A DNA stretch of 62,438 bases, filler included, from Globobulimina sp. (Eukaryota), in NCBI GenBank assembly GCA_003354225.1. It is 37 parts of 37 records of this genome, joined end to end, with 100 filler letters (N's around TTAATTAATTAA, not from the genome) between each part and the next. Parts side by side here need not be neighbours in the genome. Positions count along the whole stretch, not along the records: positions 57,472 to 59,060 come from PIVH01014443.1; 36 more parts are not named here. One strand, written 5' to 3'. The notes below the pieces were generated by a model, which was not told where the DNA came from, ran no database searches, and saw nothing but the letters and a program-made list of their open reading frames with translations. How positions within the stretch are numbered: the first letter of the stretch is position 1; each line of letters opens with the position of its first letter. The position numbers and the translations under genes were made by a program. Positions 11,841 through 59,060 of this stretch are shown here, in pieces.

Positions 11841-13431
11841 TTTAGGTTGTAATGTTTGCATAAAATCTTTCCTCCACATTTCAATGAATTCAATTTCTTT
11901 TCCTTGAAACAATTTATATAATTTAAACTCCATTTCTTTTTCTTTACTTTTATTATCTTTTCCCAAATTCAACTCATTTATATAATATTTCATTATTAAA
12001 TAATTATAATCATTTATCAAATACCAGTCAATATCCAATTCCTTATTAATATGACATTCTCTAATCACAAAACCCTGCCTTGCATTCACATGAAAATGTG
12101 CCATAATTTGCTGAATCCATTCATTTTGTGTTTCCACCAACATTTGATATCTTTTTTTTTGTTTCATCAAAGTCAATGCGTATCCCCGCAATCTATTCAA
12201 TTTATCATTCTTTCTCTTATCCAGCACCAATCCATATTTATTTAATAATTTCCGTTCGAATGAATATTTCCAACAATGTACTTTCTGCTGACAATGCCCT
12301 AAACAAACCGGTATGTGATATTCGAACTGATGTGCACAGTTTATATATTTCAGATAATTCTTTGGTATCAACAATGTTCGTGATAAGTTTTCCTTTCTTC
12401 CGCAAACAAAACATTTTAATTCAGGTACATTTATACATCGATAATAAGTTTCTAACTTATTTGCATCCATATTAATGTCAACGATTTCTGGTTTATGTAA
12501 CAATTGAATAATATATTGATTCTCAACAACTTCAACCAATTTCGCCTCGCCATTTTCTAATAAAAAATCTTTTAAAGATAAACAACCCAAAGTCAATACA
12601 TTCCCATCGACACTTAATATCGTACACAAATATCCAAATCGTTCAAATGTCACTTCTCTGCATTTTGATCGTATTACTTTCTTGTCCAGTTTCTTTAACC
12701 TTTGTTTCTGTTTAGTTTTATTAGTAATTGAACAACGATCGATTATTCCATTGTATTTATCGGAATTAATATTGGAATGCTTAATAATTTGGCGCAATAA
12801 TAAATATCGAACGAGTGCATCGTCAGCAGCATAATGTATTTGTTTTAAAGATAAATTTATTGACTCCCACTCACGATGATCAATGCCACAATGTTTGTAT
12901 TTTAGGTCCTTATTTAAAATGCATTTTGACATTCTTTCTAAGGATAAGTAGTCATTATTAGCATCATCTGAATTGCTTAAATTATGTAAATCGTTTAAAT
13001 CAACGCAGCCAAGCATTTCAATGTTATGATCCTTAAATAATTTGCTTTTATCTCCATAAATCCCAACACCACATTTTAAAATGTTGCTGTTATTCAAAAA
13101 TGATATTAACTTCATTGGTAATGGTGATATTAAATGTAAACGTATTAATAATATTAAGTTGCTATTAGCGATTTGCAACAATGATATTTTAGTTCTATCA
13201 CCTTTTTGAGATGATTTCCATTCACAATCAATACCAACAGCCAATGGGGAATATGATAATAACTCATTAATTGCCTGTTTGCATGTCTCTGAATCACGAA
13301 TAACTTTTGTTGCAATTTTTTCGTGAATGACGGTACCGGTTCTTTCTTTACGTTCCAAATAGCCAAAAAACTTAAATACCGCCAAAATACATGGGGGGGA
13401 TAGTATTAATAACAAGAGGAACAAACTGTTC
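11841..13431 (-). CDS. EXD2: EXD2-like 3'-5' exonuclease (DEDDy, WRN-exo type) with a C-terminal HNH-like region
   Basis: VGIDCEW, SLLQIA, KCGVGIYGD, WE..LSLKQIHYAADDA. N-terminal TM segment and CFVCG..IPKNY C-terminal domain. Confidence 0.8.
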
Positions 13432-21291: not shown

Positions 21292-22090
21292 GTTGACATG
21301 TTAAGATGAATCAAATAAAGACTCTAAAGTGGTTTTTTTATTCTGAAGCTGAATTATATAAAAAGCACTAAACGTTGCTGAAGCAGAATGTGTATAAATC
21401 TGGAGCTATTAAGAACGAATCTGGAGATTATTTCGGGGATCAACCAATTTGAAAGTAATGGACAAATGGATATTAATATAAACACACAAAAACAAACACA
21501 ATATCCACATAATAATTAGTATAGATAATAAGTATTATTATATTACAAAGAGAGAGATTATTAATTTGATGGTGATGCACATAATGGATTTAATGATATT
21601 CATTATAAACATGAATGTCATCCACATTCATCACCTTATTATTACTATTTGCAGCGGCGACTGCAGCCGCAGTGGCAGCACGTGCTTTTTCTGCGGCTAA
21701 CTTTGCTTTCATTGGAATCAGTATTAGGAAAAGGTTGAGAATGAGATATGGTTCCATAATTATTAGATTTATCCGTCAAATGCATCAATAATCCTTTTAC
21801 AGATTCATTTGTATAATTTTCATTATTAATATCGTTGAGAGAAGTGCTTGGCATAATTTTCTTTACATCCTTAGAATATCCAAAAANNNNNNNNNNNNNN
21901 NNNNNNNNNNNNNNNNNNNNNNNNNNNNNNTTAATTAATTAANNNNNNNNNNNNNNNNNNNNNNNNNNNNNNNNNNNNNNNNNNNNAATTGTAAAGCAAA
22001 TAACGAAGATGGAAATGATAATTTATGAGTTATTGATTGTTTCATTAAACATTATTTTAAAACTGTTTTTTTTTTTTTACTAAGTCTTAG

Positions 22091-23577
22091 ATGGCTGTTG
22101 GCAATAAGAAATAAGTCAAGAGGGTTAGAGAAATAATAACATTGAGTATTGGTCAAGCTGGTATTCAATTGTCAGAATGTGTTTGGAAACAATATTGTAT
22201 TGAACATAGTATCGGATATGATGGCATTCATCGACCACAAGCATATTATTATAAAAAAGGACCAACAAAGATTTTAACTCAAGACAGCAGCACTTCGTTC
22301 AAAGTATGTTTTGAAGAAACTGAATCCAATCATTTTATGCCAAGATCATTAATGGTTGATTTGGAACCAAATGTTATCGATGATATTAAAACATCAAATA
22401 TTAAACAATTATTTGATACTCAATTTTTATTGTTTGGCAAAGAAGACGCAGCAAATAATTTCGCTCGCGGTCACTATACAGTCGGTAAAGAAATGATGGA
22501 TGAAATCAATGATAAAATAAGGAAAATGGTGGATTATTGTGACAATATACAAGCATTTTTGATAAATCATTCTGTTGGAGGTGGAACAGGTTCAGGTATA
22601 AAAGCAAATATTTGTTCTTCATTCACTTGCAAAGGTTTATATATTCGCTGGCAAATTAAGGTTTAGCTTCTTTAATATTGGAGAGAATTGCTGTGGATTA
22701 CAGAAAAAAATGCAAATTTGGCTTTGAAATGTATCCATCATCGACAATGTCAAATTGTGTGGTTGAACCATATAATGCTTTATTGTCAACCCATTGGTTA
22801 TTGGACCATACTGAAGTTTCATTAATATTCGACAATGAGGCTCTTTATGAAATTTGTCAAACAAAATTGGACATAAATAAACCATCGTATTATGATATAA
22901 ACAGATTGTGTGCTAAATCAATATCAGCAATGACATCACAAGAACGATACGAAGGATGTTTGGGTGTTGATATGAATGAGATGCAAACAAATTTAGTACC
23001 TTTTCCTCGATTACATTTTATGATCAGTTCAATGTCGCCAATCACTACAAAATGGAAAATGAGGAATATTGATACATCTGATTTGAGATCATTGGCTGCA
23101 GAATGTTTTAATATTGGACTTGGCGGAAATTGTTTTGTCAAAATTGATGATTTCAACCCTGAGCAAGATAAATTTATGGCGATACTTTGTGAGTTTTGGA
23201 ATGTTAAATCGAGAGAATGTAATGAGATATGCCAATGGTTAAAGACAACAAAAAAAACAGAGTTTGTCGAATGGTGTCCAACGGGGTTTAAAGTTGGAAT
23301 AAGATCAGAAAAGGGATTGCCTGCAGTGCCTAATGAGGATATCATTGCATATTCAGATCGGAATATAATTATTATTGGAAACAATACAGCGATTTCTCGA
23401 GTATTCAGTCAACGGATAAGTAAGAAATATGATATAATGTATAGTCACAGAGCATTTGTGCATTGGTTTGTTTCTCAGGGAATGGAAGAGGCAGAATTTG
23501 AAGAATCAAGGCAGGATTTAGCATTCTTAGAAAAGGATTATTTGGATGTATTGACTGCACAATTTACCGATGATGAA
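22091..23577 (+). CDS. Divergent alpha-tubulin (foraminiferan-like), intron 22596-22660, in-frame TAA at 22112
   Basis: VREII, GQAGIQ, DLEP, KEDAANNFARGHY, GGGTGSG, VVEPYN, TNLVPFPRLHF, FVEWCPTGFKVG, RAFVHW, LEKDY. Confidence 0.95.
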
Positions 23578-40245: not shown

Positions 40246-40579
40246 AACTAATGTATTGGTTTATAAAATATTCTAACTTTCTCTGCTGAAAAAAACGACG
40301 TATTATGTGCTTCTTCCATTTGTGTAAATGCAATCGCATCGATGTTGTTAAGTTGCGTTTCTCATCACGTTGTATTAAACGGTGTATTCTGGATCTGTTC
40401 ACACCGAAACTTACAACATTAATAAGAAGTTGCTTGTGAATACTTGCTGGAATTGCAACAAATAAACCATTTTCCGATNNNNNNNNNNNNNNNNNNNNNN
40501 NNNNNNNNNNNNNNNNNNNNNNTTAATTAATTAANNNNNNNNNNNNNNNNNNNNNNNNNNNNNNNNNNNNNNNNNNNNC

Positions 40580-41536
40580 ATATATAGACAAGAAGGAGAA
40601 AGAGAAAAATGTGATTATTGTAATAAAAGATTAGAAGTTTCTGATGAAGGTTTTTTAACTTGTCAAAATGAAAATTGTGGAATTATTTACAAAGATAGTT
40701 TAGATACATCTGCAGAATGGAGATATTATGGAGCTGAAGATAATAATAATAGTGATCCAACTAGATGCGGTATGCCAATTAATCCATTATTAAAAGAATC
40801 ATCTTTCGGATGTAAAGTTATTTGTGGAACATCTTGTTCTTATGAAATGAAAAAAATAAGAAGATATACTGAATGGCAATCTATGCCATATAGAGAAAAA
40901 TCACAATATGATGAATTTCAAAGAATTCAGATTATAGCACATAATGCTGGTCTTCCCAAAATGATTATTGATGATGCTATTAGATACCATAAAAATATAT
41001 CAGAAGCAAAAACATTTCGAGGATTAAATAGAGATGGAATTATTGCAGCTTCAATTTATGTTGCTTGCAGAGTTAATCTTTATCCTAGAACAGCAAAAGA
41101 AATAGCTTCTATATTTTATTTAGATAATACAAGTGCGACTAAAGGTTGTAAAAATGCTTTATCAATCATAAATGGATTAGAATTTAATATGGAAAATAAT
41201 GAAAAAATAAATTTAGGAAAAACTACACCTATTTCATTTATTGAGAGATATTGTAGCAAATTAGGAATTAATCTTGAATTAACAAATCTATGTAAATTTA
41301 TTGCCATTAGAATAGAAAAAAATAATTTAATTCCTGAAAATACTCCACATTCAATAGCTGCAGGAATAATTTATTTTATATCAGATATTTGTAATTTAAA
41401 TATTTCCAAAAAAAATATTAGTAATATAAGTGAAATAAGTGAGGTAACAATTAATAAATGTTTTAAAAAATTAGAAGCTCAGAAAGATACACTTATTCCT
41501 TTGAAAATATTAGAAAAATATAGAAATAAAAATTAA
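40580..41536 (+). CDS. Giant-virus (Imitervirales-like) transcription initiation factor TFIIB, 5'-partial
   Basis: Zn ribbon CDYC..CQNENCG, AEWRYYGAED..DPTRCGMPINPLL, FRGLNRDGIIAASIY, ENTPHSIAAG, SEVTINKC. No introns. Confidence 0.9.
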   Translation: MYRQEGEREKCDYCNKRLEVSDEGFLTCQNENCGIIYKDSLDTSAEWRYYGAEDNNNSDPTRCGMPINPLLKESSFGCKVICGTSCSYEMKKIRRYTEWQSMPYREKSQYDEFQRIQIIAHNAGLPKMIIDDAIRYHKNISEAKTFRGLNRDGIIAASIYVACRVNLYPRTAKEIASIFYLDNTSATKGCKNALSIINGLEFNMENNEKINLGKTTPISFIERYCSKLGINLELTNLCKFIAIRIEKNNLIPENTPHSIAAGIIYFISDICNLNISKKNISNISEISEVTINKCFKKLEAQKDTLIPLKILEKYRNKN

Positions 41537-41578
41537 AATTTCGTATATGCTTAAATTATTTTTTATATATATTTTAAA

Positions 41579-42168
41579 ATGAATATTCCTAAAATTATTT
41601 TTATTGTTCCTTACAGAGATAGATTACCACAAAAAACACATTTTACAGTTTATATGAAATACATATTAGAAGATTTAGAAAAAGATAGTTATGAAATTTA
41701 TTTCTCTCATCAAATGGATCAAAGAAGTTTTAATAGAGGTGCAATGAAAAATATTGGATTCTTAGCTATGAAGAATAAATATCCAAATCATTATAAAGAT
41801 ATAACATTTGTGTTTAATGATATTGATACTATCCCATGTATTAAAAATTTAATAAATTATGAAACACAAAAAGGTATAGTTAAACATTTTTATGGTTTTA
41901 AATTTGCATTGGGAGGTATTTTTTCAATTAAAGGTTCAGACTTTGAAAAATGCAAAGGATTTCCTAATTTTTGGGGTTGGGGTTTAGAAGATAATATAAT
42001 AAATAAAAGAGTTATAAATAATAATATCTATATTGATAGATCTAATTTTTTTCCTATTGGTAATATGAATATTATACAAGCTACTGATAGACCAATACGA
42101 TTAATTAATGACAGAGAAACTACTTCACAATTAACAAGCATAGAGGGATATCATCATATTAATCAATT
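41579..42168 (+). CDS. GT7-like galactosyltransferase of giant-virus type, 3'-partial
   Basis: IVPYRDR, FNRGAMKNIGF, VFNDID, GFPNFWGWGLED. Starts 42 bp after TFIIB. Confidence 0.88.
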
Positions 42169-45648: not shown

Positions 45649-47043
45649 ATTGCCAAATTATTTAATCATTTTTGTTTGCCATATCTCATTGTACCAATGC
45701 AGAAAATGAAATGTATTAAAATGATAAAAATAAATGAATCAAACGATGCGTTAATGCATAAATGTGAATATTTCTCATCCAATGAATCATTATTATTACG
45801 AGACAAATGTTATTGTTGTGGCTCAGCTGAAGATATCAATAAATTAATAATCTGTGCTCGCTGCGGTATTACCATTCATTCGTTTTGCATGCGATCAAAC
45901 ATTGATTTTGCCAAAACAGATAATATCGGATATTGTTATCATTGTTTATGGTTTTATCATAAAAATAATAAATTAAATAAAATAAACAAAAGTATTATTC
46001 TCAAACAAACTCAATCTGTAAATAATAATAATAATAACTATGATGATTTTATCATAAATAATAACATTCCATCATGGATTAAACCATTGTTATACGATAT
46101 TATCAATGGTAAGAATATGAATATAGATATTAAACAAAGACGAACCACGAAAGCTAACACAAAAACAATATTAAAACCATTGAAAATAAACACGGAAAAT
46201 GAATATAAATCGTCATTATATCTGTCATTAAATAATGTGGATAATAAAAACATATTGAATGAAGACAGTAAATGTGAAATATGTCATTATTATTTAAATA
46301 AAAGCTGTGGCCGATTATTACCAATTAAAGGTGGCTGTAAATGGATGCATACAAAATGTGTGTTATCCTCCACTGATGGAATAAATGTAAATTATAATCA
46401 TAAATATGGTACAAATATAATTGAGATTGATGTCACAAAGCTAGTGAGCCTTTGTCCAAAACATAAATGTCATATTTGTAATAAATTTGGCGCAGCAATA
46501 CATTGTTCAATATCTGACTGTGCATTTTCTTATCATTATCCATGTATTGTTGATACACAAATGTACGATGATTGGCAGTATAATCTACGGCCATTCTTTT
46601 GTAATATGCATAAAATACATTATAATAATCATAAAAATATTCTTCATTCTATTGTAAATCAACAAAATTTATTTGATGAATGTTGCATAATATTATATAA
46701 TACAAATAATAGTAATAATAATATTGACAATAATGTGTTTAAGGTGAAAGGGAATATAATAATTAAACAATTGAAAGATAGCAATAATAATATTATTTTA
46801 TATCAAATCTATGATATTTTTTGGAGTTATTGTAATTGTGGTAAAAGAACACAATTTATTTATGAATCATATGGGAATAACAATAATAAATATAAATATA
46901 AGCTAATTGTGGCGGATGATCCTCTGTCATATAACATATTTTCTGCAAATGATTCAAGCCAAATATTCCAAACACTTATTCAAAAATATCCAAACGGATT
47001 TGATAAATCCTTATTTGACAACAAATATTCGTTTTTCTTGTAA
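45649..47043 (+). CDS. Trithorax/MLL-like fragment: PHD, extended PHD and FYR-like region
   Basis: CYCCG..CARCGITIHSFC; CEIC..GRLLP..WMHTKC..CHIC..GAAIHC..YHYPC; IFWSY..KRT. Confidence 0.75.
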   Translation: MAKLFNHFCLPYLIVPMQKMKCIKMIKINESNDALMHKCEYFSSNESLLLRDKCYCCGSAEDINKLIICARCGITIHSFCMRSNIDFAKTDNIGYCYHCLWFYHKNNKLNKINKSIILKQTQSVNNNNNNYDDFIINNNIPSWIKPLLYDIINGKNMNIDIKQRRTTKANTKTILKPLKINTENEYKSSLYLSLNNVDNKNILNEDSKCEICHYYLNKSCGRLLPIKGGCKWMHTKCVLSSTDGINVNYNHKYGTNIIEIDVTKLVSLCPKHKCHICNKFGAAIHCSISDCAFSYHYPCIVDTQMYDDWQYNLRPFFCNMHKIHYNNHKNILHSIVNQQNLFDECCIILYNTNNSNNNIDNNVFKVKGNIIIKQLKDSNNNIILYQIYDIFWSYCNCGKRTQFIYESYGNNNNKYKYKLIVADDPLSYNIFSANDSSQIFQTLIQKYPNGFDKSLFDNKYSFFL

Positions 47044-47337
47044 AATTAGAAAATTTCAATCGTTATTTAATTATTCTTTTTGTCACAGTCTTAGTTAAAA
47101 CATGTCGATCGTACAACATCTGATAACCAATACGTCGTCAAGTCATGCAATGAGAAATAGCAACACCAAGCACAATTGCGCATTATTGTTGCTGTTACCA
47201 TCAGTTGCAATCGTTTGTATGCTAGCAGCGATGATCANNNNNNNNNNNNNNNNNNNNNNNNNNNNNNNNNNNNNNNNNNNNTTAATTAATTAANNNNNNN
47301 NNNNNNNNNNNNNNNNNNNNNNNNNNNNNNNNNNNNN

Positions 47338-55682: not shown

Positions 55683-55877
55683 NNNNNNNNNNNNNNNNNN
55701 NNNNNNNNNNNNNNNNNNNNNNNNNNTTAATTAATTAANNNNNNNNNNNNNNNNNNNNNNNNNNNNNNNNNNNNNNNNNNNNCCAAATAATAACCAATGT
55801 AAATAAAAAAAAATGCATTTAACTCTATTTTGTATCCTTGCACATTATCAAAAAAAAAATACAAAAAAACACATTAA

Positions 55878-57371
55878 GATTTATCGTTTAACAATGAATT
55901 ACTATTCAACGATGAAAACAATTTGGAAGAATCACTCGATCCATTTCTAGATTGGCAAGGCTCCAAACACCGCAATGATTTATTAAAATGGGTGCAATCC
56001 TTAAACTTTTTATACGTACAAAGCAATAACAACAAAGGCAAAACCATCAAACGTCTCAACGAGGACAAAAAGGAGAAAAAGACCATCGAAATCATCACCA
56101 CCTTCCAAGAAAATGGCATATGCTCCATCTCCGACTTATTGCTCTGCGGCACCGAGAAAATGAAACAACTCTTAAACGAGTGGCAAATTCGCGGGCAACA
56201 AAAGAAACAATTTCTGTTTGCCCTGAAATCGTTAAAAAACGTCTACGCAGAGAAAAAATCCAAACTCTCCACCGACACTGCCATCGCCCAAGCATTCATG
56301 CAGCGAAACAGCAAAAACCTCAGCAACAAAGACATCAAAATGGATAAATACAACCTGAATCTCGAAGAAAAAAGCAATTCCAACGCCAGCAAGCAAAATA
56401 TAAAAATCATCAATGGCAGCAAGATAATGCAACAAATCACGCATTTAATGGACATCCAGCACTTCGAAGATGCCATTTTTTTGACTGAAAAGGCGCTCAA
56501 AATCATGGACCAGCAGTTTGGTTACAACCTCATCGAGAAAACGCACTCTTTGCTGTCACTGCCAATGTATTATCTGCCTCAGAATGCGGACAAAAACCAA
56601 AACGTTTCCTGTCTAAAAAGCAACTCGCAATCCACTGAAAACGTCACTGTCAACGTCAACTACAACATCAACATCAACATCAACATAAACGGCACCGGCT
56701 CCGGCAATATCAATCAAAGCCAAACCAACAACAACGAGAGCCACACTTGGCTGCCCACGGCGCCTTCCATCACGCAGTCGTTCAACACCTTATTATCGCA
56801 GTTCAAGTTCAACAACAAATTGTCGTCCTTGTTCGACGAGGACAGCGCCGAAATGGCCACGGCGACGGCCACGGCCACGGCCACGCCGCCCAACAAAATC
56901 ACCAACATCGAGAACATTTTGCCGATGGTGCGCAGCAAGAAAGAGTCGGCCACTTCGTGCGACATCATCCGGTTGGAGGCGCGGGGCACTTTGATGGATT
57001 TGTCGCCCACCAACGCCGACTTGGTGCCCTTGGGCCTCTTACGCAGAATGTACCCGCTCGTGTTGTGGCAGTCCGGCCGCAGCCGGCATGGCCTGGTCGC
57101 CATCGGCGAGATATTGTCGGAGCAGGGCTTCAACAGGGAATGCCATGCCATCCACCCCGCGCTCTTATACCAAGTGCAAAAGTACGAGCTGTGCAAGTCT
57201 GCGGTGTTGAAGTCGCTCAACCTGTCGCATAACAAGTGCGTCTTGGCGCGTTTGGTGGACATTTGGTTGGACCGCAACAAGAAGTTCAAGTACAACAAAG
57301 TGTGCGTGTTGTTGCAGTACCTGACGGACAGCAATGCGCACATCGAGTACTTCAACCGCTTCGGCCATAAC
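55878..57371 (+). CDS. Hypothetical protein with a SAM-like N-terminal region (partial at both ends)
   Basis: About 498-aa open frame. FQENGICSISDLL..LNEWQI is SAM-like. Confidence 0.6.
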
Positions 57372-57536
57372 NNNNNNNNNNNNNNNNNNNNNNNNNNNNN
57401 NNNNNNNNNNNNNNNTTAATTAATTAANNNNNNNNNNNNNNNNNNNNNNNNNNNNNNNNNNNNNNNNNNNNTTTTTCACTGTTAAAAAACTTTAGGGAGA
57501 GGTGAGGCACTCAAACAATGAATTAAATTTATACTG

Positions 57537-59060
57537 TTAATAATAATCATTACAGGAACATTTGCCATTTTTAAAAATATGAACTCTGTTTGTATCCGTA
57601 ATAATGAATTTTCTATCTTCAATCAAAGATAATACTTTCATAAAATGATGACAATCTTGACATATTCTTAAATTTTTATTTATTACAATATCATAATCTT
57701 TATTTTTTTCAGTCATTATTAATGCAAATAATACCGCTAATTTTTCACTGTGTTTATAAATTGTATTTTGTGCTTTTTTATTGTTATTTATTTGCCGCGT
57801 TAAAACATTCAAATTAGGACAATATCCATAATTTATTAATTTTAATTGAAACGATTTATCATTTAATTTAGTATCAATACATTTATATTCATTTTTAGAT
57901 TTATATGAATTTCCTGCAACAAATTCATATATTTTACTATTAATTTGAATTGATGCGATTGCTTTGATTTTGCATTTATTCCATTTATTCAATACCATGT
58001 TATTTCGAATCTGTTTAACTTTATCAAAATCATTATGAAAAGCATAAATATTTGACAATAAAATAGATGAAGAAGCCATTATTCTACAATTCTCTGAATA
58101 TCGTTTTTTTATTTCATTATAAATTATTTCACCAATTTCTAAATTGTAAAATTTTTTAGCTCCACTTAATATTGACATCCATTGTTCAATGCATTCTCCA
58201 TCATCATCAGTGTCACTATCAGCAGCAGCACCATATGACAATAATAATTTATACGCTTTATTTAAATCACCATTTCGTGACAAACAATCAATTAAAGCGG
58301 ATAATGTGTATTTGTTATATTGTAATCCATCACCACATTCTTGTAATTCTTGCCATAAATCTAAGGCCGCTTTTACATTTCCACAATGATTAAATGCATT
58401 AATTAATGATGTATGTATTTTATATAAATCCAAATTATTTGAGTTGTAAACATTTGAGTCAGTTTTCATTTTTTCATAGATATTTATGGCATTTTCAATT
58501 TGTCCATTTCTACCCAGCGAATGAATGATACTATTCCAAACATCCAAATTATTACAATATTCATAATAATTTACAAAATAAATCTCATCAAATATCTGTT
58601 TACAAATTGATAATTTACCACATTTTCCATAAAAATAAATTAAATTAATTTGAATTGAAATATTTTGCAAAATATGTTTATTTTTGTTGTAATCATTTAA
58701 TAAATGCGAATGGATATTTTTACCAAAGTGATATATCGTTGCTTGTGTACATACTTTAAAAATAATACAATAACTTATTTCATTTAAATTAATTTCATTC
58801 TCTAAATACTCACAAAACATTTTAATACATTTAATATGTTCACATTCATTGTCTAAATAAACAGTTAACATTGAATTTATTGTAATAATATCTCTGTTGT
58901 TCATACAATTATATACATTTAATGCGGATGAAACATCTCCAATTTTGCCATAAAACGAAATAATCGCATTGTTTAGATTTATATTATTATTGTTATTATT
59001 GTTCAACAACAAATTAGATATAATTTCTTTTCCTTTTCTTATATTTTTTATATTTGTGCA
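57537..59060 (-). CDS. PLS-class PPR protein with E1/E2 and DYW cytidine-deaminase domain (ends DYY), 5'-partial
   Basis: L-S-P-L-S-P2-L2-S2 motifs, E1 (WMSILSGA), E2 (ILLSNIYA), GYCPN, HSEKLA, KNLRICQDCH, RVHIFKNGKCSCNDYY. Confidence 0.96.
   Translation of the reverse strand, partial: CTNIKNIRKGKEIISNLLLNNNNNNNINLNNAIISFYGKIGDVSSALNVYNCMNNRDIITINSMLTVYLDNECEHIKCIKMFCEYLENEINLNEISYCIIFKVCTQATIYHFGKNIHSHLLNDYNKNKHILQNISIQINLIYFYGKCGKLSICKQIFDEIYFVNYYEYCNNLDVWNSIIHSLGRNGQIENAINIYEKMKTDSNVYNSNNLDLYKIHTSLINAFNHCGNVKAALDLWQELQECGDGLQYNKYTLSALIDCLSRNGDLNKAYKLLLSYGAAADSDTDDDGECIEQWMSILSGAKKFYNLEIGEIIYNEIKKRYSENCRIMASSSILLSNIYAFHNDFDKVKQIRNNMVLNKWNKCKIKAIASIQINSKIYEFVAGNSYKSKNEYKCIDTKLNDKSFQLKLINYGYCPNLNVLTRQINNNKKAQNTIYKHSEKLAVLFALIMTEKNKDYDIVINKNLRICQDCHHFMKVLSLIEDRKFIITDTNRVHIFKNGKCSCNDYY

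Follow-up and report, generated by a model that had tools for sequence, protein, structure and literature searches.

Introduction

The described systems closest to the gene that we report here are the land-plant C-to-U RNA-editing factors of the PLS class of pentatricopeptide repeat (PPR) proteins: these include OTP86 and OTP82 of Arabidopsis and the Physcomitrium proteins PPR56 and PPR65, as well as the synthetic PPR-DYW protein of structure 9kfx, and are characterized by triplets of P, L and S motifs that run into the P2-L2-S2, E1 and E2 motifs and a C-terminal DYW cytidine-deaminase domain. [quoted passage not shown] In OTP86 the ligands of Zn1 are H892, C920 and C923, the catalytic glutamate is E894, the second zinc (Zn2) is held by H924, H947, C954 and C956, and W960 flanks Zn2 (PMC7611903). 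The gene in question lies on the minus strand at positions 57537..59060 of a 62,438-base stretch of DNA (the window) from the Globobulimina sp. assembly GCA_003354225.1. We consider it rather likely that its contig holds the 3' two-thirds of a nuclear, intron-less foraminiferan PPR-E1-E2-DYW gene, one of a lineage-specific multigene family, whose product edits mitochondrial C to U.

Outside land plants, PPR proteins with DYW domains have been documented in Naegleria, Physarum (16 genes, mostly 'LS-type'), Malawimonas, Acrasis, diplonemids, rotifers and fungi (PMC4758236; PMC13386178). In Naegleria, the DYW-PPR genes were found first and mitochondrial C-to-U editing thereafter (PMC4758236). The paradinids (Ascetosporea), which are likewise Rhizaria, have PPR-DYW transcripts and both C-to-U and A-to-I editing in their mitochondria, with an inferred link between a DYW protein and the former; according to the same source, C-to-U editing had never been reported in rhizarians before (PMC11946409). 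By the description given there, however, the paradinid DYWs group with those of fungi, with which they have a 2-residue deletion in common. In a survey of 2026, the number given is '31 DYW in Rhizaria'; its main text names no species, and the domains are listed in its Table S10 (PMC13386178), which may already include foraminiferan entries. In the literature searched for mentions of DYW or pentatricopeptide proteins together with foraminifera, Reticulomyxa or Nonionella, we found no paper describing the proteins considered below. The original prediction, which was made from the DNA alone, saw in the gene the best candidate of the window for a novel system. In view of the paradinid editing and of the rhizarian DYWs already counted this was an overstatement (PMC11946409; PMC13386178): the system as such is known, and what is added is a lineage for which it had not been explicitly described.

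Gene location and domain architecture

The window consists of 37 unrelated contigs of 1589-1592 nucleotides (nt) each, apparently sorted by length and joined by spacers of the form N44+TTAATTAATTAA+N44, where the linker TTAATTAATTAA has 12 bases; there are 72 runs of 44 N in all. As these flanking spacers are artificial, the neighbouring contigs carry no linkage information. The open reading frame (ORF) of the DYW gene is uninterrupted from the contig edge at 59060 to a C-terminus reading ...CSCNDYY, with no intron in 1.5 kb. The closest full-length relative, an 885-residue protein of Nonionella stella (P0001), matches the window protein via its residues 378-885; hence, about 377 N-terminal residues are probably missing from the latter.

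The assignment of the protein to the PPR-DYW family is secure. The Pfam DYW_deaminase model (PF14432) is matched at E 3.7e-27 and 94.4 bits against a cut-off of 24, over positions 1-93 of its 93, and three PPR models are matched above their cut-offs: PF01535 (2.6e-22), PPR_2 PF13041 (3e-17) and PPR_1 PF12854 (1.4e-15). The individual motifs were named by hand, rather than with hidden Markov models specific to P1, L1 or S1: the assignment draws on how the sequence aligns with plant PLS proteins and with 9kfx, a designed PLS-DYW protein, and on the helix pairs of the structural model considered below. The features are as follows, with residues numbered along the window protein and G+C content given as GC:

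57472..59060, no strand: contig bearing the DYW gene, 1589 nt, GC 0.232
57537..59060, minus strand: partial coding sequence of 507 codons, cut off at its 5' end by the contig edge and followed by the stop codon TAA (57537-57539)
58983..59060, minus strand: L-type PPR motif, partial, residues 1-26; helix 7-20; run of seven Asn at its end
58890..58982, minus strand: S-type PPR motif, residues 27-57, 31 residues; position 5 N, last D; helices 27-39 and 43-52
58782..58889, minus strand: P-type PPR motif, residues 58-93, 36 residues; position 5 N, last N; helices 58-70 and 75-87
58662..58781, minus strand: L-type PPR motif, residues 94-133, 40 residues; helices 94-107 and 110-131
58548..58661, minus strand: S-type PPR motif, residues 134-171, 38 residues; conserved QINLIYFYGKCG stretch; 7-residue insertion before P2
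58440..58547, minus strand: P2 motif, residues 172-207; helices 172-184 and 188-201; boundary with L2 uncertain
58311..58439, minus strand: L2 motif, residues 208-250; helices 210-226 and 229-241
58191..58310, minus strand: S2 motif, residues 251-290; acidic insertion; model confidence (pLDDT, see below) dips to 68 in residues 281-290
58089..58190, minus strand: E1 motif, residues 291-324; weak E_motif match; helices 291-303 and 307-321
57984..58088, minus strand: E2 motif, residues 325-359; window residues 327-507 align to 9kfx 441-612; helices 325-341 and 345-357
57540..57983, minus strand: DYW cytidine-deaminase domain with gating insertion, residues 360-507; matched by PF14432, 7w86 and 7o4e
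57744..57752, minus strand: H437-S438-E439, first Zn1 ligand and catalytic Glu; map to OTP86 H892/E894
57648..57662, minus strand: C467-Q-D-C470-H471, two Zn1 ligands and first Zn2 ligand; map to OTP86 C920/C923/H924
57540..57581, minus strand: Zn2 ligands H494, C501 and C503 and the terminal D505-Y506-Y507; map to OTP86 H947/C954/C956/W960

The order L-S-P-L-S-P2-L2-S2-E1-E2-DYW, which had been read from the sequence in the original prediction, was recovered in the manual assignment, in the 9kfx alignment and in the helix pairs of the AlphaFold model. Checking against the alignments likewise confirmed the position that it gave for the HSE motif (57744-57752) and placed the CxxCH, C-S-C and DYY motifs at 57648-57662, 57552-57560 and 57540-57548, and its view that the zinc site is intact agrees with the alignment of all zinc and catalytic residues to those of OTP86. 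The boundary between P2 and L2 is uncertain owing to a 5-residue insertion there, which is also present in P0001. Canonical pairs of position 5 and last residue are seen in only three of the visible motifs: an S motif (N/D), a P motif (N/N) and P2 (N/S, given its uncertain boundary). The window protein is comparable to the land-plant factors in its motif order and its P/L/S triplets leading to P2-L2-S2, but differs from them in having insertions before P2, before L2 and in S2.

Structural model and the zinc-binding sites

An AlphaFold2 model built on a 59-sequence alignment has a mean predicted local distance difference test score (pLDDT) of 93.1, with no segment below 50, and a predicted template modelling score (pTM) of 0.93. 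The modelled fold comprises helical repeats, with nine helix pairs before E1, followed by a β-hairpin, a helical insertion and an α/β core; two further helix pairs, 291-321 and 325-357, are placed between S2 and the DYW domain. A Foldseek search against the PDB returned as its first match the RNA-bound synthetic PPR-DYW protein 9kfx_A (E 2.8e-21), and the model also matched the isolated DYW domains 7w86 (template modelling score TMt 0.88, root-mean-square deviation 2.1 Å, 38% identity) and 7o4f (TMt 0.75). At the sequence level, the matches to solved structures were 9kfx (3.3e-61), the DYW domain of DYW1 in 7w86 (1.4e-21) and that of OTP86 in 7o4e (6.1e-18), the last aligning window residues 371-506 to chain residues 8-137. 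As in the land-plant factors, the deaminase fold has a gating insertion, a Zn1 site of the HxE...CxxC form and a Zn2 site of H, H, C and C.

The window protein has H437, C467 and C470 as the equivalents of the Zn1 ligands of OTP86, E439 as that of its catalytic residue, H471, H494, C501 and C503 as those of its Zn2 ligands, and Y507 in the place of W960. The spacing of the zinc and catalytic residues equals that of OTP86, except for two additional residues between H437 and C467. Across the 59 aligned rows, H437, E439, C467, C470 and H471 show no variation, and conservation at H494, C501 and C503 is 90% or higher. The foraminiferan clade described below, the members of which are just 36-61% identical over E2 and DYW, strictly retains the catalytic glutamate together with the full set of seven zinc ligands, which argues for selection on catalysis. 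The domain has the canonical HSEKLA and CxDCH motifs. A variant form of the domain, DYW:KP, is a proposed U-to-C editor of hornworts, lycophytes and ferns; going by what we take to be the KP signature, nothing in the window protein points to this variant.

Relatives and phylogeny

A word-indexed search of 5.8 billion proteins, in which 8000 candidates were scored, gave 176 matches at E ≤0.001, the best five being 35-48% identical to the window protein. The best of these are from EukProt and belong to two foraminifera, Nonionella stella (P0001 and P0003) and Bolivina argentea (P0004); the nearest relatives from these species are 37-49% identical, and the named land-plant proteins among the 120 matches listed are 22-30% identical. 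An exhaustive HMMER search of 1.84 billion representatives returned 7877 proteins at E ≤0.001, 4159 at 1e-10 and 756 at 1e-30. Six distinct proteins of N. stella are found among the top matches: P0001, P0003, P0246, P0247, P0254/P0412 and P0271. Other named relatives come from the heteroloboseans Naegleria gruberi (P0329) and Willaertia magna (P0276), the rotifer Rotaria magnacalcarata (P0323 and P0086) and the lycophyte Diphasiastrum (P0249 and P0301). The Nonionella and Bolivina proteins P0001, P0003, P0246, P0254, P0271 and P0004 carry no functional name in their sources.

A pool of 292 proteins was compiled, of which 223 have a match to the E2 and DYW region of the window protein (residues 327-507), in 209 cases a full one. 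In a FastTree analysis of 190 rows, 20 near-identical cluster members having been dropped, the window protein falls in a 16-row clade with a local support of 100. A second tree was computed with IQ-TREE (LG+C20+F+G4 PMSF) on 59 rows and 172 columns of E2 and DYW, comprising the clade, its six nearest neighbours and 40 rows spread across the remainder, and leaving out 131 of the 190 FastTree rows. Here the window protein pairs with P0001 of Nonionella (support 98/98) within a 13-row clade (100/100) that contains, beside it, five Nonionella proteins and seven unnamed proteins from ENA, Logan and MERC. A further split (98/98) places this clade together with two heteroloboseans, two rotifers and two unnamed proteins opposite the 40 mostly plant rows. 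We conclude from these sequence comparisons that the gene is a member of a known protein family and, within it, of a foraminiferan clade that is well supported.

The original prediction had held that the composition of the gene was not that of land-plant genes and had proposed that a DYW phylogeny be built: in the resulting trees, which are unrooted and partly sampled, the window protein lies outside the sampled plant rows and with foraminiferan sequences, and the low identity to plant proteins (at most 30%) shows that it is not a land-plant contaminant. Being unrooted, and having no named sequences of Physarum, Acanthamoeba, Malawimonas, fungi or paradinids, the tree is compatible with ancient vertical descent as well as with an old horizontal transfer.

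P0001 is likely the ortholog of the window protein: the two are 49% identical overall and 61% over E2 and DYW, have insertions in common, and have the same position-5 and last residues in the aligned S and P motifs. They differ in that the window copy is truncated by the contig end and far more AT-biased, with an asparagine content of 14% as opposed to 7% in P0001. The 98/98 split leaves the heterolobosean proteins of N. gruberi and W. magna together with the foraminiferan clade, and they include a C-terminus without tryptophan (DFF in P0329). Their identity to the window protein, however, is 26-28%, and those of Naegleria keep the PG box (IPGIT) and a 'CH.A.K' motif.

A further group of relatives, P0247 (of N. 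stella), P0244, P0245 and P0090, match the window protein over the PPR-E1-E2 region only (from residue 1 to about 340) and end some 5-20 residues past E2. If complete, these would be DYW-less members of the E class, as known from plants, which would need a deaminase in trans; alternatively, they may be 3'-truncated transcripts.

Recurrence in public data and possible traces of paralogs

Pieces 100% identical to the DYW contig are present in independent sequencing runs from two studies: run X1 covers 30 of 30 depth bins and run X2 covers 28 of 30. Two further runs (X6 and X7) contain pieces that are 96-99% identical. Among the listed runs with matching pieces, none is on record as RNA.

In four public runs, longer contigs (up to 2601 nt) match only 33-36 nt of the gene, at 58612-58655 (2 mismatches), and are unlike it to either side; the loose ends of these contigs recur across runs. 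It is the conserved QINLIYFYGKCG in the second S motif that the matching stretch codes for. At the junctions 58644 and 58655, the loose ends translated by hand stay in frame and are PPR-like (FLNDCIIQVS and ...KHLLNDTS), resembling ILHDSIIQSS of P0003 and ILNDTN of P0005. These in-frame continuations hint that the organism carries several paralogs. Within the window, a tblastn search with the protein found only the gene itself, along with six other matches at E ≥2.3, a result which, coming from 59 kb of unrelated contigs, is uninformative on the genome.

Proposed function

By analogy with the land-plant factors, the window protein is best understood as a putative site-specific C-to-U editing factor that most likely acts in mitochondria. 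Apart from the clade-specific changes discussed below, it keeps every element of the editing machinery that is visible in sequence. The full protein would be imported into mitochondria, as in land plants and Naegleria; each motif of its PPR array would recognize one base of a short RNA sequence; and a cytidine approximately 4 nt downstream of that sequence would then be brought by the E1-E2-DYW module into the zinc-dependent deaminase site and converted to uridine.

To our knowledge, foraminifera have no plastid genome of their own, and in this the host of the window gene differs from land plants. In five of the 13 relatives listed (P0003, P0005, P0090, P0245 and P0246), the first 40 residues contain 6-9 lysines or arginines, and at least the first 29 are devoid of acidic residues. 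Judged by eye, rather than with a predictor, these basic N-termini are suggestive of a mitochondrial presequence. It is the combination of these basic N-termini, the want of a plastid genome proper to the host and the mitochondrial setting of the non-plant precedents that leads us to favour a mitochondrial site of action.

A wider proposal is that foraminifera carry their own old, independently expanded and remodelled PLS-PPR-E-DYW family, possibly with DYW-less members, which carries out site-specific C-to-U editing of the highly divergent mitochondrial transcripts of Retaria, a process so far unreported in foraminifera. This we put forward tentatively, as a serious possibility that may equally well fail.

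Counter-evidence and alternative explanations

Several observations weigh against an active mitochondrial editing factor of foraminifera. Those bearing on activity are chiefly clade-specific replacements, which, on the evidence of the alignments, are a real reason for caution. The PG dipeptide is found in 0 of 14 rows of the foraminiferan clade, as against 13 of the 19 other rows shown: where plants have PGxSWIE, the window protein reads KAIASIQI. Thirteen rows of the clade extend to a C-terminus, and in 12 of them tyrosine takes the place of the terminal tryptophan; P0290 ends otherwise and P0004 is truncated. Of the 209 pooled proteins in which the E2-DYW match is full, 119 have DYW as their last three residues and 7 have DYY. 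The terminal tryptophan is reported to be essential in DYW1 and PpPPR65 (PMC7611903), and its replacement by alanine lowers editing (PMC13324415). Of the five residues at the interface of the PPR and DYW regions that are conserved in plants, namely R568, R591, R595, F596 and H598 (PMC13324415), R568 and R595 are kept as R465 and R492, whereas R591, F596 and H598 are replaced by T488, V493 and I495; this mapping is via the 9kfx alignment, the chain numbering of which is offset by 2 from that of the paper. The 'RFHHF' of land plants reads 'RVHIF' in the window protein. The Pfam E_motif model (PF20431) is matched weakly, at E 0.001 and 19.7 bits over residues 290-340, below its cut-off of 27.3. 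Moreover, rotifers and fungi carry DYW-PPR genes with no editing reported, as far as the available text of the two sources goes (PMC11946409; PMC13386178), and the paper on retarian mitochondrial genomes, as far as a term search shows, mentions neither C-to-U editing nor PPR proteins (PMC10127745).

The loss of the PG dipeptide, the terminal change from W to Y and the replacement of three of the five interface residues would fit a foraminiferan PPR-DYW protein that no longer edits and has become an RNA-binding, stabilizing, processing or accessory factor with a diverged DYW domain. Of the alternatives this is the one that survives best, and we nevertheless think it unlikely. The strict retention of the seven zinc ligands and the catalytic glutamate in so divergent a clade argues against it, and the N. 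gruberi protein P0329 ends in DFF, yet Naegleria edits. The replacements are themselves conserved: those at the interface recur across the clade as 'RVH.F', so that they have the look of a co-adapted variant of the domain rather than of decay. A β-hairpin with strands 368-373 and 376-381 is still predicted in the region of the PG box. Both this box and the terminal DYW are also known to vary among non-plant DYWs (PMC13386178). We retain an editing function as the preferred reading.

A second group of observations concerns the origin of the gene. None of the other contigs among the 37 is as AT-rich as the DYW contig, and the named foraminiferan relatives presumably come from transcriptomes of field-collected cells. 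If so, there is formal room for an associated organism common to foraminiferan data sets: the gene would then be real but belong to another eukaryote, be it prey, parasite or symbiont, that travels with foraminifera. Two further points suit such an origin. Near-identical sequence is present in runs labelled with three different coded organisms, and the G+C content at third codon positions (GC3) ranges from 0.072 to 0.705 across the 24 ORFs of at least 300 codons in the window, a span that suggests that the assembly may be compositionally mixed or contain more than one organism. The GC3 of the DYW ORF, 0.158, is the second lowest of the 24. The original prediction had seen in the AT-rich, asparagine-rich composition a match to host contigs. 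This holds to the extent that the ORF of contig 45649-47237 is similar, with the same 14% of asparagine and a GC3 of 0.209; the extreme position of the DYW contig and the width of the GC3 range, however, make composition weak evidence of a shared host.

An associate as the source is nonetheless improbable, and somewhat more so than the loss of editing. Every named member of the clade is foraminiferan, with six proteins from Nonionella and one from Bolivina, and the clade stands apart from the sampled heteroloboseans, rotifers and plants at 100/100. Three other window ORFs have a GC3 of at most 0.21, and the exonuclease contig considered below (11841-13430) also has its best matches among EukProt records named in the style of those of Nonionella and Bolivina, which is suggestive. 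On this evidence, we prefer to regard the gene as foraminiferan.

Recent horizontal transfer from a land plant or alga, or contamination by one, would account for the architecture, which is of the plant PLS-E1-E2-DYW type, and published surveys, in the parts available, read non-plant DYWs as transfers from plants (PMC11946409; PMC13386178). We consider such a source very improbable for the window gene: it conflicts with the low identity to the named land plants, with the position of the protein in the 100/100 foraminiferan clade across the 98/98 split from the 40 mostly plant rows, and with a codon usage that is extremely AT-biased, as the GC3 given above indicates. Indeed, the extreme AT and asparagine bias argues against any recent arrival from a plant.

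With regard to the target, the N-terminus of the window copy, and with it any targeting signal, lies beyond the contig end, which is a further point against a confident mitochondrial assignment. Some foraminifera, including Nonionella stella, retain diatom chloroplasts, and plant DYW-PPRs edit in both organelles, but action on the plastid transcripts of such kleptoplasts, rather than on mitochondrial ones, is just as improbable as a plant source, for a stolen plastid would have to import a nuclear-encoded protein, which is far more to assume than mitochondrial import. The non-plant precedents, too, are mitochondrial (PMC4758236; PMC11946409).

Other genes in the window

A search of the whole window with Rfam gave 0 matches, and hence no rRNA. 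A TFIIB-like ORF (40580-41533, plus strand) on contig 40579-42168 (GC 0.24) matches PF00382 at E 1.1e-25 as well as Cyclin_C; it has the lowest GC3 of the window, 0.072, and is thus more AT-biased than the DYW gene. Contig 21987-23577 contains a divergent α-tubulin-like gene in two overlapping frames, with ORFs at 22115-22666 and 22660-23577 (plus strand), the split being due to either a short intron or a frameshift; among 4213 matching proteins, none exceeds 64% identity to its 306-residue C-terminal part. The ORF at 55878-57371 (plus strand) on contig 55783-57371, with 498 codons, no Pfam match and a GC3 of 0.705, has runs of Asn-Ile and Ala-Thr dipeptides; its contig is the most GC-rich (0.456), and its composition is unlike that of most of the window. 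Lastly, an ORF of 530 codons at 11841-13430 (minus strand) extends over nearly the whole of contig 11841-13431 and contains a 3'-5' exonuclease domain (PF01612). It has 12 relatives, the best of which are 30-34% identical and come from EukProt or ENA; the nearest named ones are bivalve EXD2-like proteins (23%). Four of its relatives, at 30-39% identity, are EukProt entries styled like the Nonionella and Bolivina records.

Implications

The main value of these observations is a concrete prediction, that of plant-type C-to-U editing in foraminiferan mitochondria. There is precedent for such a prediction, in that finds of DYW-type PPR genes have foretold organellar C-to-U editing before, as in Naegleria. 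Foraminiferan mitochondrial genomes were described only in 2023 (PMC10127745). Since the description, as far as a term search shows, includes neither C-to-U editing nor PPR proteins, its gene models are read directly from DNA. A conserved frameshift in the cox1 gene of Miliolida implies that some post-transcriptional fix is in use (PMC10127745). If the family is active, some foraminiferan mitochondrial proteins and barcodes, such as cox1, deduced from DNA would be wrong at edited codons, and an ecologically important group would offer a new, experimentally approachable editing system.

The variants of the clade, with no PG box, tyrosine in place of the terminal tryptophan and an altered interface, could show which residues of the DYW domain are truly required, and could inform the engineering of compact PPR-DYW editors. 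Furthermore, a well-supported lineage is added to the debate on whether non-plant DYW-PPRs are ancient or horizontally acquired: if the wider proposal made above is true, the grouping with heterolobosean and rotifer DYWs, outside the sampled plant subclades, would weaken the idea that all DYWs found elsewhere were recently acquired from land plants.

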